A stretch of DNA of 64,000 nucleotides from a virus (taxonomy: Duplodnaviria > Caudoviricetes): IMG/VR virus record IMGVR_UViG_3300016486_001578. The stretch is one strand, 5' to 3'. A model generated the notes under the pieces. It did no database searches and had not been told where the DNA came from. It worked only from the letters and a program-made list of their open reading frames with translations. Below are positions 49,498 through 63,462 of the stretch, piece after piece. The translations under genes and the position numbers were made by a program. Position 1 is the first letter of the stretch. Each line of letters begins with the position of its first letter.

Positions 49498-50610
49498 ATG
49501 AATATGATACAAGAAGAAATAACAAAAGAAGAAGAAGATTTTATCTTCGAGTCCCAAGAAATAAATAGGGGCGAAGATTACGAAGCGCTATTAGCGCTTT
49601 ATGAGGAATATCCTATTATAATTCCTGAAGAAGGAGATGTGTTGACCGCAATATACCAAGGTATATCATCAGATCAATTTATATTCTCAGTAATAGGCCT
49701 AAAAGATGATATTAGAGTGGAGACTAAATCATCAGAATCTAAATATATCTCTAATTTAGAAATAGGTGATGGGATTGATGTTTTAATAACAAACATAAAC
49801 GAAGATGTTTATTTAATAAACGGTAGTATATGTGATCTATATGAATCAAGAGCACACGAATCATTGAGATCAATGGATAAAGATGAGGCGGTGATGGCGA
49901 CTGTTAAATCTATTAATCCAGCAGGATATGAAGTTGAGGTCTTCTATAATGGTGTTGTTTTAGCTGGGTTTATGCCTAATACATTAGCCGGAATAAACAA
50001 GCTACATGATGCAGAATCTATAATAGATGAAACATTTGATGTGATGATTGAATCATTCTCACAGAGAGAAGGAACTTATATCGTTAGTAGAAAGAGATAT
50101 CTACAAACATTAATACCGGAACAAGTAGAATTATTAGAATATAATGAAGTTTATTCTGGTTATGTTACTGGTACTACAAAATTTGGAGTATTTGTAGAGT
50201 TTAGTGCAACACAAGATGTTCCTAATTGCTTAACTGGTATGGTACATAAAGCGAACCTTAACACAGATTGGAAAGACAGGATGGATGAAATCCAACCAGG
50301 ATTTGAAATAGATTTTTATATAAAGGAAGTTATTAAAAATAATAATTATAATAATTATAAAATTATATTAACACAGATCCTAAGAGAAACTCTTTGGGAC
50401 ACTATAAAAGGTGGCCAAGTTATGAGTGGTAAGATAAGAGATATTAAAAAGTTTGGAGCATTAGTTAATCTAGATGAAGAAACAGTTGGACTTGTTCACA
50501 TTTCTGAAATAGAAAAATCTGGAAAATCATTTGAACCAGGTGATGATATTGATGTAAAAGTTATATCCACTGATAGGAGCACTCGAAAGATATTCCTAGC
50601 CGTGGCTTAG
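49498..50610 (+). CDS. Ribosomal protein S1-like multi-S1-domain protein
   Basis: S1 repeats GFMP, TKFGVFVEF...GMVH, KKFGALVNL...GLVHISEI...VKVIS-x-D...KIFL. Confidence 0.85.
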   Translation: MNMIQEEITKEEEDFIFESQEINRGEDYEALLALYEEYPIIIPEEGDVLTAIYQGISSDQFIFSVIGLKDDIRVETKSSESKYISNLEIGDGIDVLITNINEDVYLINGSICDLYESRAHESLRSMDKDEAVMATVKSINPAGYEVEVFYNGVVLAGFMPNTLAGINKLHDAESIIDETFDVMIESFSQREGTYIVSRKRYLQTLIPEQVELLEYNEVYSGYVTGTTKFGVFVEFSATQDVPNCLTGMVHKANLNTDWKDRMDEIQPGFEIDFYIKEVIKNNNYNNYKIILTQILRETLWDTIKGGQVMSGKIRDIKKFGALVNLDEETVGLVHISEIEKSGKSFEPGDDIDVKVISTDRSTRKIFLAVA

Positions 50611-59919: not shown

Positions 59920-60005
59920 AATAGTAGGTAAGTCCTGTTAAAGTGTGGTTGTGAGACATCTACCATAAATATATTTTGAATATATCACTCATAGGATCTA
60001 CTATT
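59920..60005 (+). ncRNA. Candidate structured small RNA
   Basis: AATAGTAGGT/ATCTACTATT, CCTGT/ATAGG and AGTG/CACT nested stems enclosing two hairpins. Confidence 0.4.
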
Positions 60006-60118
60006 TTTAAAATAAATTGAATTAAATTTTGATAATACAAAAACTTATATTACATTTGTAGTATAATAATAACAAAAAAGACAAAAAGAAAGAATTAACT
60101 TTTAATATATAAGAAACA

Positions 60119-60232
60119 ATGAGAGCAATTAACAAACATAAGCATTTTAGTAAGAAGTCATTTTTCTGGTTTAGAAACCAGGGTTCGGCAACAGATGCGT
60201 ATTGCTCTAATTTAAGTAAAACAGGAATGTAA
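60119..60232 (+). CDS. Leader peptide 1 (K/H/F/W-rich), MRAINKHKHFSKKSFFWFRNQGSATDAYCSNLSKTGM
   Basis: 37-aa ORF between promoter motifs and terminator; 11 of codons 6-18 are K/H/F/W. Confidence 0.85.
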   Translation: MRAINKHKHFSKKSFFWFRNQGSATDAYCSNLSKTGM

Positions 60233-60256
60233 ATATTTAAAATAGATATACAAATT

Positions 60257-60294
60257 AAACCCGGACAAATAAAATTGTCCGGGTTTTTTATTTT
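60257..60294 (+). terminator. Attenuator terminator before tRNA array 1
   Basis: AAACCCGGACAA-ATAAAA-TTGTCCGGGTTT plus T-tract. Confidence 0.9.
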
Positions 60295-60299
60295 AACTT

Positions 60300-60372
60300 A
60301 GACCCGTAGCTCAATCGGCAGAGCACCTGACTTTTAATCAGGGGGTAGTGGGATCGTAACCCACCGGGTCTA
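60300..60372 (+). tRNA. tRNA-Lys(TTT)
   Basis: Full cloverleaf; anticodon arm CCTGA-CTTTTAA-TCAGG; T-loop ATCGTAA. Confidence 0.92.
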
Positions 60373-60388
60373 CAAAAAAAAACACAAT

Positions 60389-60507
60389 GGTTGTGTAGCT
60401 CAGTTGGTAAATTGGCTTATCTTTCTTTTTAAAACCCTTTTATCATGAAGAGAGCGGGGGTGTGAAGTACCCTGACATTTGCTCCGGTTCGATTCCGGAC
60501 ATGACCA
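60389..60507 (+). tRNA. Atypical tRNA-Phe(GAA)-like gene with 42-nt insertion in the D-loop
   Basis: Acceptor GGTTGTG/CATGACC, D-stem GCTC/GAGC, anticodon arm GGGGT-GTGAAGT-ACCCT, T-arm TCCGG-TTCGATT-CCGGA. Confidence 0.65.
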
Positions 60508-60518
60508 CAAAAATATAC

Positions 60519-60591
60519 ACGGGCGTAGCTCAGCTGGTAGAGCAGTGGTCTCCAAAACCAAAGGTCGTAGGTTCGATCCCTACCGTTCGTG
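60519..60591 (+). tRNA. tRNA-Trp(CCA)
   Basis: Cloverleaf, loop CTCCAAA. Confidence 0.9.
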
Positions 60592-60601
60592 CAAAATATA
60601 T

Positions 60602-60675
60602 GGTGATTGTAGCTCAATTGGTAGAGCGCTCGATTGTGATTCGAGAGGCAGCGGGATCGTAACCCGTCTTTCACC
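60602..60675 (+). tRNA. tRNA-His(GTG)
   Basis: G-1, C discriminator, loop TTGTGAT; two T-T mismatches in the acceptor stem. Confidence 0.85.
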
Positions 60676-60682
60676 CAAATAT

Positions 60683-60755
60683 GGAACCTTGGCAGATTAG
60701 GTAATTGCGCCGGATTGAAGATCCGGATGACTCGGATCGTTACCGGGAGGTTCCA
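60683..60755 (+). tRNA. tRNA-Phe(GAA)
   Basis: Cloverleaf, CCGGA-TTGAAGA-TCCGG. Confidence 0.9.
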
Positions 60756-60765
60756 CAAAAAAAAT

Positions 60766-60837
60766 ACGTCTGTGGTGTAGTTGGTAACATTTTAGTCTCC
60801 AAAACTAAAGTCTTCGGTTCGAGCCCGAACAGGCGTG
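60766..60837 (+). tRNA. tRNA-Trp(CCA)
   Basis: Cloverleaf, TTAGT-CTCCAAA-ACTAA. Confidence 0.9.
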
Positions 60838-60859
60838 CTATTTAATAATAATAAAAAAT

Positions 60860-60905
60860 ACGTGAGTGAGCGTAGGTTAAGTCGGCAGGATTCCAACCCC
60901 TCGCC
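60860..60905 (+). pseudogene. Possible 5' fragment of a tRNA (Trp-like, loop TTCCAAC)
   Basis: Starts ACGTG like the neighbouring Trp tRNAs; no T-arm or 3' acceptor strand. Confidence 0.3.
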
Positions 60906-60910
60906 GTTAG

Positions 60911-61108
60911 AGTTTTGAAAATAATAAACACTCTATTGATACCAAAAATAAAATGAGCGAAAAGGCCAAATTAAGAATTGGTGAAAAAAATTCATCATTT
61001 GGAACTTGTTGGATAACTAAAAATGGTGTTAATAAGAAAATAAAAAAAGAATTAATTCAAACATACAAAAAGGATGGTTGGATAAAAGGTAGAATAATAA
61101 ATAAATAA
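60911..61108 (+). pseudogene. Remnant of a Seg-like homing endonuclease (NUMOD3 plus C-terminal DNA-binding part)
   Basis: KHSIDTKNKMSEK...GEKNSSFGTCWIT...GWIKGR*; no catalytic N-terminus. Confidence 0.7.
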
Positions 61109-61114
61109 ATAATT

Positions 61115-61188
61115 GCGCTTGTAACTCAGTTGGTAGAGTACCTGGCTTTTAACCAGGGAGTCGTCGGGTTCGAGTCCCACCGGGCGCA
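61115..61188 (+). tRNA. tRNA-Lys(TTT)
   Basis: Cloverleaf CCTGG-CTTTTAA-CCAGG; one bulged C in the T-stem. Confidence 0.88.
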
Positions 61189-61261
61189 CAAAAATTATGT
61201 GTTTGAACTTACAGTTTGAGATTTACACAGTACCTAAAATCTAAGTAAACTGGAGAAATAT

Positions 61262-61340
61262 ACGGGTATCGTCTAAGCAAAGACACTTCGTACAAGCGAA
61301 GAAATAGGATGCATTTTAGGTTCAAGTCCCCTCGCCCGTG
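61262..61340 (+). other. Degenerate tRNA-like element
   Basis: ACGGGT/GCCCGT ends, GTCT/AGAC stem, CTTCG/CGAAG stem with 6-nt loop, GGTTCAAGTCC. Confidence 0.4.
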
Positions 61341-61373
61341 CTAAAAACAAAATTAACTTTTAATATATAGTAT

Positions 61374-61628
61374 ATGAAACATTTAGAAAAATTTAAAATG
61401 ATAAAGGAAAGTAAGCTATCGGTGTATAAAGATGTTTGGGCTATTATAAAATATGATGATTTTGAAATACATGAAGTATATCTTAAAAAAGAAGAAGCAG
61501 AACTCGATTGTATAAAAAAGAATGAAGAACTAGAAAAACTTAGTCATATTAAACATAGATATGAAGTTAAGTCATTAGATGATGCAATAGATATCATAAA
61601 AGATAGTGTCAGGGGTGATGTTTATTAA
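61374..61628 (+). CDS. Small protein, MKHLEKF...ES N-terminal motif
   Basis: ORF after late motif. Confidence 0.7.
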   Translation: MKHLEKFKMIKESKLSVYKDVWAIIKYDDFEIHEVYLKKEEAELDCIKKNEELEKLSHIKHRYEVKSLDDAIDIIKDSVRGDVY

Positions 61629-61641
61629 AAAATAAAATTAT

Positions 61642-61836
61642 ATGAAACATATAGAAAAATTTAATGAGAATTCCTCTATGAAAACTGAGGAAGAAATAAG
61701 AGAAGAAATAGCCAATTCTATTGGATATGACCTTAAATATTGGTTGGAAAATTGCACAGCACTTGGTAGAGACGCCTATGGCGCATATATCGATAAGGCA
61801 ATTAAATCTATTCAGAATAAAATAATAAAAGGATAA
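61642..61836 (+). CDS. Small protein, MKHIEKFNEN N-terminal motif
   Basis: ORF. Confidence 0.65.
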   Translation: MKHIEKFNENSSMKTEEEIREEIANSIGYDLKYWLENCTALGRDAYGAYIDKAIKSIQNKIIKG

Positions 61837-61839
61837 AAT

Positions 61840-62151
61840 TTGAAACATCTAAAACCATTCAATGAATCAAAATATAATGATATCGTAGATGATATTTTTT
61901 AGAATTAAAAGACTCTGGTTTTGAAATATGGCACTTAGATGATAAGCATGGACATGAAGTAGTAATAAGAAGAAATTAAAATTATATCTAGTGATGGTGA
62001 AGTGATGATTGATTTGTTTGATTATTTAAGAAACAAAGATTTTGAAAAAATAAAAGTTCTTACTACTACACACCTACATACAAAGAAAGAAGGAAAAAGA
62101 GGAATTATTGATTTGGAAAATTTAAAATATGTAATTATTCAATTTAAATAG
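61840..62151 (+). pseudogene. Small protein (MKHLKPFNES, TTG start) with two apparent frameshifts
   Basis: Continuous protein-like reading is restored by shifts near 61897 and 61968. Confidence 0.5.
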
Positions 62152-62223
62152 AAAAAAATTAGGAAATAACAAAAACAAGTATTACATTTATAATATATAT
62201 AGTAACAATAAGAAAATAAAACA

Positions 62224-62301
62224 ATGAATAACATAAACAACATATCGAATAGTTCTAGTCGTAGTTCGCTAAAAATTAGTGAGGGTTGTTCGTATTTGTA
62301 A
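62224..62301 (+). CDS. Leader peptide 2 (Ser/Arg), MNNINNISNSSSRSSLKISEGCSYL
   Basis: 25-aa ORF; control stretch TCG AAT AGT TCT AGT CGT AGT TCG. Confidence 0.85.
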   Translation: MNNINNISNSSSRSSLKISEGCSYL

Positions 62302-62325
62302 TATTCGTATAAAAAAGATATTTAT

Positions 62326-62357
62326 AAAGACCCTCTAATTTATTAGAGGGTTTTTTT
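62326..62357 (+). terminator. Attenuator terminator before tRNA array 2
   Basis: AAAGACCCTCTAA-TTTA-TTAGAGGGTTTTTTT. Confidence 0.9.
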
Positions 62358-62365
62358 GTTTTTAT

Positions 62366-62442
62366 GCCTTAGTATCAGCACCGAATACGAATCGGTAGTC
62401 TTGTAATGGATGAAAATGTGGGTTCGACTCCTACCTAAGGTT
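62366..62442 (+). tRNA. D-armless tRNA-Arg(ACG)-like RNA
   Basis: Acceptor GCCTTAG/CTAAGGT, 7-nt linker in place of the D-arm, ACCGA-ATACGAA-TCGGT, 21-nt variable region, T-arm GTGGG-TTCGACT-CCTAC. Confidence 0.65.
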
Positions 62443-62449
62443 CAAGTTA

Positions 62450-62641
62450 GTTAAACGTAAGGATAACTCTAAAATATGTAACGATTGTAGGTCGATTAAT
62501 AATAGGAAAGTTAAAAGACCATCATATGAAGAATTAAAAGAAGAAATTAAAATATCAAATTATACAAAGATGGGTAAAAAATATGGAGTTAGTGATGTCT
62601 CTATAAAAAAATGGATTAAAAATTATGAAAAAATGAAATAA
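62450..62641 (+). pseudogene. Remnant of an HNH-type homing endonuclease C-terminus (CxxC plus HTH)
   Basis: CNDC...RKVKRPSYEEL...GKKYGVSDVSIKKW; no start codon. Confidence 0.6.
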
Positions 62642-62660
62642 AATTAGTCACAAAAAAATT

Positions 62661-62748
62661 GGAAATGAAAGCAGTGCCATGGAGGTGCGACTAGTCTTGA
62701 AAACTAGGTCTCGTTAAATCGGGTGGGGGTCGGTTCCTCTCATTTCCG
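62661..62748 (+). tRNA. tRNA-Ser(TGA), 8/4 type
   Basis: GGAAATGA/TCATTTCC, CTAGT-CTTGAAA-ACTAG, long variable arm. Confidence 0.8.
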
Positions 62749-62759
62749 CAAATAAATAA

Positions 62760-62843
62760 GGAAGAGTAATTAAACAGGTGTTTGACCTCGTTTTGAAAAC
62801 GAGTGGTACTTTACGGTATGGGGATCGGGACCTCACTCTTCCG
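62760..62843 (+). tRNA. tRNA-Ser(TGA), 8/4-compatible
   Basis: GGAAGAGT/ACTCTTCC, D-arm TTAAAC-AGGT-GTTTGA, CTCGT-TTTGAAA-ACGAG. Confidence 0.82.
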
Positions 62844-62848
62844 CACAT

Positions 62849-62932
62849 AGAGAGTAATCTAGTCTGGTGACTAGGGCCGCCTGCTAAGCGTGTCGCACCT
62901 TCGGGTGTGGGGTTCAATTCCTCTACTCTCTG
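62849..62932 (+). tRNA. tRNA-Ser(GCT), 8/4 type
   Basis: AGAGAGTA/TACTCTCT, D-arm CTAGTC-TGGT-GACTAG, loop CTGCTAA, TTCG-capped variable arm. Confidence 0.82.
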
Positions 62933-62936
62933 CTAT

Positions 62937-63027
62937 GGAAGTTATGGTGTATTAGGTAATACTTCTTGTTTGGAAAACAAGAACCCGTGTAATGGCGGGC
63001 CCGTTTCGACTACGGTGACTTCCTCCA
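62937..63027 (+). tRNA. tRNA-Ser(GGA), 8/4 type, CCA encoded
   Basis: GGAAGTTA/TGACTTCC, T-stem CCGT/ACGG, CTTGT-TTGGAAA-ACAAG. Confidence 0.82.
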
Positions 63028-63109
63028 AATTAGAGGCTCATGAGGGCTTGTTTTCATTTCTATTTATGGGACAATATCAGATATAAAAAGAAAAAGAAAA
63101 TAAATACAT

Positions 63110-63199
63110 AGAAGTGTACTCAAATTGGTAAAGAGGGCAGTTTGCTAAACTGTTAGGCCGGTTAATAACTGGTGCGGGGTTCGAACCCCTCCATTTCTG
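63110..63199 (+). tRNA. tRNA-Ser(GCT), canonical type
   Basis: AGAAGTG/CATTTCT, GCAGT-TTGCTAA-ACTGT, long variable arm. Confidence 0.88.
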
Positions 63200-63234
63200 C
63201 TTATTTTTAAATATTTTTCCTTATCTTTAATGAT

Positions 63235-63462
63235 ATGAAGAGAGTTAAATGTATAAAGAACTTTTATAAAAGTACTTACGGAGATAAAATATTATTTGAA
63301 GATGGTAAAGAATATTACCAATTAACTGATTTTGTATCAGATGGATTAAAGTTTGTTTGTATAAAATCACCTCATATGTTGGGTAAGGGCATTGTTGAAT
63401 TTGCTTTGGTTGAAAAAACTGATACATATTTATTATTTAAAGATTACTTTGTAAGTATCTAA
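63235..63462 (+). CDS. Hypothetical protein
   Basis: 75-aa ORF. Confidence 0.6.
   Translation: MKRVKCIKNFYKSTYGDKILFEDGKEYYQLTDFVSDGLKFVCIKSPHMLGKGIVEFALVEKTDTYLLFKDYFVSI

Follow-up and report, generated by a model that had tools for sequence, protein, structure and literature searches.

Within the window, that is the entire 64-kb stretch of phage DNA analysed here, the region from position 60028 onward reads as a single transcription unit made up of a promoter, an A-rich leader, an open reading frame (ORF) and a terminator. This unit is likely to be a transcription attenuator of the ribosome-mediated, leader-peptide type by which a phage tRNA operon is gated, as judged from its sequence and from those of its relatives. 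A reading of this kind had been put forward in the first-pass annotation of the region and is borne out by the present analysis: of the parts of attenuators of the trp/his type, the leader with its in-frame control codons, the antiterminator pairing and the terminator are conserved in 36 homologs, together with a predicted protector. The phage probably restricts transcription of its Lys, His, Phe and Trp tRNA genes to conditions under which ribosomes are slow at the corresponding codons.

The leader ORF (60119-60232), on the plus strand like the other features of this unit, extends over 37 codons (MRAINKHKHFSKKSFFWFRNQGS...) from an ATG at 60119 to a TAA at 60230-60232. Its control codons 6-18 (60134-60172) read AAA CAT AAG CAT TTT AGT AAG AAG TCA TTT TTC TGG TTT and specify four Lys, two His, four Phe, one Trp and two Ser residues; on re-reading, the earlier count of 11 Lys, His, Phe or Trp (K/H/F/W) codons out of 13 was confirmed, and all the coordinates reported with it were found to be correct. 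Among the 127,918 thirteen-codon windows in the six frames of the 64-kb window, at least 10 such codons without an intervening stop occur at this locus only, and the ORF at 60119-60232 thus contains the cluster of regulatory codons that characterises a leader-peptide attenuator. Pattern scans of viral and metagenome contigs extended the set to 36 distinct homologous leader ORFs from huge-phage contigs, which share its start and control block and keep the ATG and the frame; the block H-K-H-F-S-K-x-x-K/F-W-F is present in all 36. The best DNA matches to the window were obtained with two uncultured huge phages, LR756502.1 (642 kb) and LR745206.1 (635 kb), both of which carry a homologous leader, a terminator of a different sequence and a His/Phe/Trp/Lys tRNA array. 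Pfam searches with ten large ORFs of the window identified few domains (HTH, SbcC-like, S1 domain, M16 peptidase), a sparseness that fits an uncharacterised huge phage and carries no information on its host. The S1 RNA-binding domain (Pfam E = 5e-24) is at the C-terminus of a 370-residue product encoded at 49498-50610; this nearby phage gene is related to translation.

The predicted promoter (60028-60058) is of the Bacteroidota type, with a -33 element TTTG at 60028-60031, a 19-nt spacer and a -7 element TACATTTG at 60051-60058; the two-element consensus TTTG/TAnnTTTG is one which we take to be that of the Bacteroidota. A sigma-70 scan also marks 60029-60056. The TAnnTTTG motif is found upstream of 18 of the 24 leader units, as against 13% of random 130-nt segments. 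Within the A-rich 5' leader, near the start of the ORF, lies the motif AACTTTTAATATATA (60097-60111), of which the window has a second exact copy at 61355-61369. Each copy is located 7-10 nt upstream of an ATG, that of the leader ORF and that of an ORF at 61374-61628, respectively, and variants of the motif precede nearly all leaders in the related phages, including those of units devoid of the host-type promoter. It may represent a phage-specific or second promoter, or a translation-initiation context.

The genes behind the terminator begin with tRNA-Lys(UUU) at 60300-60373 (ARAGORN; Rfam, 64.1 bits) and a 119-nt tRNA-like gene at 60389-60507 (37.2 bits with the Rfam tRNA model, without an ARAGORN call), which are followed by tRNA-Trp(CCA) at 60519-60592, tRNA-His(GUG) at 60603-60676, tRNA-Phe(GAA) at 60683-60756, tRNA-Trp(CCA) at 60766-60838 and, as the last cargo gene detected in the unit, tRNA-Lys(UUU) at 61115-61189, these five being identified by both ARAGORN and Rfam. 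Visual inspection of the 119-nt gene revealed an intact acceptor, T arm and GAA (Phe) anticodon arm, with about 40 extra nucleotides inside the D-loop, which is an unusual place for an insertion; the gene could be a pseudogene or the carrier of an unrecognised intervening sequence. The tRNAs encoded behind the terminator (Lys, Phe-like, Trp, His, Phe, Trp, Lys) correspond in identity exactly to the leader's four amino acids, a link absent from the first-pass annotation of the element, and each K/H/F/W codon of the leader is readable by some anticodon of this cargo. In the 15 homologs examined, all the tRNAs detected between the K/H/F/W leader and the next leader were likewise Lys, His, Phe or Trp, their order and copy number being shuffled. 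The regulatory codons thus correspond to what the operon supplies and, since the sensor amino acids are the identities of the cargo tRNAs, the sensor would read the decoding capacity for its own cargo and not a biosynthetic need.

A search for sister units, defined by a strong terminator with tRNAs after it and a small ORF before it, was performed on the whole of LR756502.1, on a 385-kb IMG/VR contig and on parts of two others, and gave about seven leader-terminator-tRNA units per genome searched. Besides the K/H/F/W leader with its Lys, His, Phe and Trp cargo, these comprise a leader with SKSSSSRSSR ahead of Arg(ACG), Ser(UGA) and Arg(UCG); one with ISIAIIAGGAG ahead of Ile(UAU), Gly and Ala; one with NLNMNMNTLTVVNNTL (N/L/T/V/I/M) ahead of Asn, Leu, Val, Ile(GAU), Thr, Met and Arg(UCU); one with PQPQDQD ahead of Pro, Gln and Asp; one with QQQQQQQ ahead of Gln; and one with YYYEAYEE ahead of Tyr and Glu. 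When the match between leader and operon was scored as the fraction of leader codons readable by the anticodons of the operon, the true assignment outscored every alternative in each of three genomes (5040, 5040 and 720 permutations). The correspondence extends to the choice among synonymous codons: Ile codons are mostly ATA where tRNA-Ile(UAU) was detected and mostly ATT/ATC with tRNA-Ile(GAU), and for Arg the codons used are mainly CGN alongside Arg(ACG/UCG) and AGA in the N/L/T/V class, where Arg(UCU) is present in two of the four units.

The window itself contains a further unit, of the S/R class, at 62166-63200. It has a promoter-like site (62166-62194), an ORF (MNNINNISNSSSRSSLKISEGCSYL; 62224-62301) homologous to the S/R-class leaders of related phages, a terminator (62326-62355), a sub-threshold tRNA with the anticodon ACG as read by eye (62366-62442) and Ser-type tRNAs at about 62661-62747, 62760-62846, 62848-62932, 62937-63027 and 63110-63200. 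Other elements are interspersed among the tRNA genes. Two tRNA-like remnants, neither of them called by any tool, lie at 60850-60925, which matches an intact tRNA-like gene in LR745206.1 and is broken off before the T arm, and at 61195-61340, which terminates in GGTTCAAGTCC, a sequence resembling a T arm. Also present are a small ORF and a partial ORF, at 60953-61108 and 62456-62641, the second of which ends in ...KYGVSDVSIKKWIKNYEKMK; Pfam searches with both pieces gave nothing significant, with matches at chance level only (HTH_28, E = 0.03). The KYGVSDVSIKKWIKNYEKMK tail recalls, to our eye, the helix-turn-helix tails of homing endonucleases, and the two pieces may be homing-endonuclease remnants. 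Inside the K/H/F/W cargo of two related phages (L098 and L108), ARAGORN calls tRNAs with a four-base anticodon, GGAA, which are perhaps miscalls, or else Phe-like tRNAs whose anticodon loop is enlarged.

An intrinsic terminator (60257-60294) separates the leader ORF from the regulated genes. It has a 12-bp stem with six GC pairs, a 6-nt loop (ATAAAA) and a T-rich tail, with an energy of -18.3 to -18.8 kcal/mol; it lies 24 nt after the leader stop codon, and only 5 nt separate the end of its tail from the first tRNA gene (60300). A terminator is present at the same place in every homolog, the stem sequences being different, and in the first 19 homologs, for which the gap was measured, a strong terminator follows the stop codon by 19-33 nt. 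The homolog terminators were judged by per-sequence folds, differences in loop length shifting the arms out of register in MAFFT alignments. The whole element folds with a z-score of -4.25 relative to shuffled sequences.

Upstream of the terminator, the 5' half of the leader is predicted to pair with its 3' half in an extended protector (1:2 pairing, 60122-60211), which would sequester segment 2; the minimum free energy (MFE) of the leader alone in this fold is -24.2 kcal/mol. The hairpin CTGGTT-TAGA-AACCAG (60166-60181), earlier proposed to be the 1:2 structure, is real (-7.2 kcal/mol with flanking pairs) and nested in the protector, but is not universal: its core, TGGTT-N4-AACCA, is found in many homologs and is missing in the clade with ACTTGG at segment 2. 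Better conserved is a longer predicted helix between the H-F-S-K-S codons and segment 2. RNAalifold predicted two protector helices that join these codons to segment 2 and the bases beyond it, 92.4% paired as against 37-50% in slid controls; their covariation is weak, with 7 to 74 of 500 shuffles reaching the observed values. Pairing within the protector would explain the conservation in the control block of two Ser codons, for which the cargo has no Ser tRNA.

The 5' strand of the putative antiterminator, segment 2 (60178-60188), offers two overlapping registers, CC(A)GGGTT at 60178-60185 and GTTCGG at 60183-60188, and its alternative partner, segment 3, is the 5' arm of the terminator (60257-60268), with AACCCGG at 60258-60264 and CCGGAC at 60261-60266. 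The complementarity of CC(A)GGGTT with AACCCGG, on which the first-pass annotation had based the 2:3 pairing, is present in the window (-8.8 kcal/mol), but the register shared by homologs is that of GTTCGG with CCGGAC, which overlaps the former and lies 3-5 nt downstream (-8.7 versus -8.8 kcal/mol). The 2:3 duplex of the window is short (-8.8 kcal/mol as compared to -18.3 for the terminator) and its complementarity alone is not significant against shuffled leaders (p = 0.14); support for the pairing comes from the homologs. In each of the 36 sequences, the most stable pairing of the leader with the terminator 5' arm is located 10-18 nt past the TGG codon, while the arms vary: most have CCGAAC, one clade CCAAGT, LR756502.1 CTCGAA, L108 GCTCGAAC and the window CCCGGAC. 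RNAalifold, applied to an alignment cut before segment 4, predicted a six-pair 2:3 helix (alignment columns 69-74 and 158-163) which is 96.8% paired over the 36 sequences; controls in which the partner was slid by 1-3 columns were 2-60% paired. The helix has 36 compensatory cells in three of its six pairs, and none of 500 shuffles reached the observed pairing or covariation, which was first computed on 15 homologs and then on the 36-sequence alignment. The independent compensatory events are few, consisting of the ACTTGG/CCAAGT clade, which contributes most of the cells, the leaders L001, L108 and L230, and the U-G pair of the window. Taken unit by unit, complementarity between leader and arm reached p <= 0.05 against shuffles in 9 of the 24 units. 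Conservation of the 2:3 pairing, on which the earlier proposal had been made to depend, was thus found, its place being constant and its sequence covarying with the terminator stem; an antiterminator that uses the terminator 5' arm is accompanied by compensatory change, albeit in few independent events.

The pattern of conservation in the leader also bears on whether its peptide matters for its own sake. At the peptide level the first 20 residues show good conservation, and a weak sigma-70-like match (60247-60275) overlaps the terminator; both would be accommodated if the ORF were a conserved small protein followed by an ordinary terminator, with the tRNAs arising from leaky readthrough or from another promoter and the match in composition being incidental. 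We regard this explanation as very improbable. The leader C-termini are conserved neither in length (28-39 residues) nor in sequence, and Pfam has nothing to match such peptides. Segment 2 is nevertheless conserved at third codon positions, a combination that fits selection acting at the level of the RNA rather than the protein. A small-protein gene would, moreover, leave unexplained the covariation of segment 2 with a terminator about 80 nt away, the mere 5 nt between the terminator tail and the first tRNA, and the fit of each of seven leader classes to its cargo, the true assignment ranking first among 5040 permutations.

The leader RNA might alternatively act without translation, as a riboswitch to which a tRNA or a protein binds directly in the manner of a T-box; T-box leaders, as is generally known, also couple the status of a tRNA to the choice between an antiterminator and a terminator. 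The control triplets, however, share a single frame behind the conserved ATG, with no stop until past segment 2 in the 36 homologs, and are of several codon types instead of one specifier. Rfam searches at the gathering score and at E <= 1 returned tRNAs and chance-level matches only, with no His, Trp, Thr, Leu or Phe leader family, and no T-box match (E <= 1) was present in 59950-63300. A translation-independent switch is accordingly the least probable of the alternatives considered, and a distant one. The element was likewise not assignable to the T-box riboswitches, matching no T-box leader architecture, or to a classical amino-acid operon leader family, as it has no covariance-model match and the genes downstream are tRNAs and not biosynthetic genes.

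The effect of a translating ribosome on the leader fold, for which constrained folding had been suggested as a check, was modelled with a 27-nt ribosome footprint on a transcript cut just after segment 3. With the A site on any of codons 6-18, the MFE structure pairs segment 3 with segment 2, in a register that varies with the position of the stall; a ribosome placed on segment 2 or at the stop codon leaves segment 3 unpaired, the leader then adopting the protector fold. The 2:3 pairing is thus predicted for stalls over the entire control block in the cut transcript, but the MFE structure of the full-length transcript keeps the terminator under every mask. Since the terminator wins at full length whichever mask is applied, any antitermination must be under kinetic control, like that of classical attenuators. 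In the cut transcript without a ribosome, the antiterminator is slightly favoured (-28.4 versus -25.6), and a ribosome in transit at codon 30 likewise leaves segment 2 free. The outcome of the predicted switch is dependent on folding kinetics that lie beyond these models.

The following sequence of events would account for these features. Transcription would start at the host-type promoter near 60028-60058, and the 37-codon leader would be translated during synthesis, coupling being assumed. With fast decoding of the Lys, His, Phe and Trp codons, the ribosome would cross segment 2 to the stop codon; once it has gone past, the protector would refold, the terminator at 60257-60294 would form and the RNA would end 5 nt before the first tRNA gene. 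If any control codon is read slowly, the charged tRNA being scarce, we infer that the ribosome would stall within 60134-60175 and hold the protector open, such that segment 2 (60178-60188) could pair with the terminator 5' arm as it emerges. With the terminator blocked, RNA polymerase would read into the Lys, Phe, Trp and His tRNA genes, and RNase P and other nucleases would free the tRNAs. As the products are the very tRNAs that read the control codons, the circuit would amount to a negative feedback on decoding capacity.

The physiological signal perceived by such a circuit is a matter of interpretation, as a stalled ribosome is blind to whether a tRNA is missing or uncharged and the present data fit either signal. 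Classical attenuators (trp, his) all respond to tRNA charging. The RNA switch could accordingly be the same while its signal is amino-acid limitation, general translational stress or timing, with tRNA transcription delayed or boosted as translation slows late in infection and with no true feedback. We consider this unlikely, though less so than the other alternatives. It counts against the feedback reading that extra tRNA would not help if the stall reflects amino-acid starvation. Against the rival signal, the strict match of leader and cargo at the level of codons is difficult to account for if the stall is not relieved by the product, and a general sensor needs neither seven codon sets nor ATA-specific Ile codons in combination with tRNA-Ile(UAU).

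In its layout the element resembles the trpL, hisL, pheL and leuL leaders of E. coli, with a short translated leader, a run of regulatory codons and the 1-2-3-4 arrangement of a predicted protector, an antiterminator and a terminator, the expected stall site being immediately 5' of segment 2 and the terminator preceding the genes under control. It differs from these in being a phage element that controls tRNA genes instead of biosynthetic enzymes, in having its leader stop codon 40-odd nt beyond segment 2, where theirs is before or within it, and in bearing no sequence relation to the leader families in Rfam. Like the thr (Thr/Ile) and ilvGMEDA (Ile/Leu/Val) leaders, it would be multivalent, a shortage of any one amino acid giving readthrough; however, the amino acid sets of those leaders follow a shared pathway, whereas Lys, His, Phe and Trp have no metabolic link and are set only by the downstream tRNA genes. 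The regulation of a translation component by the state of its cognate tRNA is shared with the pheST attenuator (pheM leader) and with T-box control of synthetases, the targets of which are synthetase proteins, and the T-box acts without ribosomes by binding the tRNA directly. The tRNA clusters of phages T4 and T5 are comparable in being phage-borne arrays with intervening small ORFs and homing-endonuclease genes, the latter represented here by putative remnants. Phage T5, considered as a possible precedent, has no such units: the small ORFs near its tRNAs are ordinary small proteins without a codon match, and annotated promoters, not terminators, precede its tRNA genes. No published description of leader-peptide attenuation of tRNA genes was found in the full-text literature, most subscription journals being outside this scope and an older report being possible. 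The mechanism itself is already known, including its multivalent form in thr and ilv; what differs here is the tRNA target, the phage owner and the use of a set of units to cover the greater part of a tRNA complement.

The present findings bear on the open question of what purpose tRNA genes serve in phages and how their expression is controlled. With a sensor whose codons are those of its tRNA cargo, the speed of decoding would feed back directly on tRNA transcription, which provides a testable model for a demand-driven supply of tRNAs in infection; the modular leaders could also be of use as natural sensors for the availability of individual tRNA species. The findings suggest how huge phages might cope with tRNA depletion. 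It is conceivable, although we advance it tentatively, that the huge phages of this clade possess a tRNA homeostat with codon resolution, in which nearly the whole tRNA complement is distributed over about seven operons, each induced only by slowing on its own codons. If that is true, the phage could replace exactly those tRNAs which are limiting, for instance after host shut-off or after cleavage by a host anticodon nuclease.
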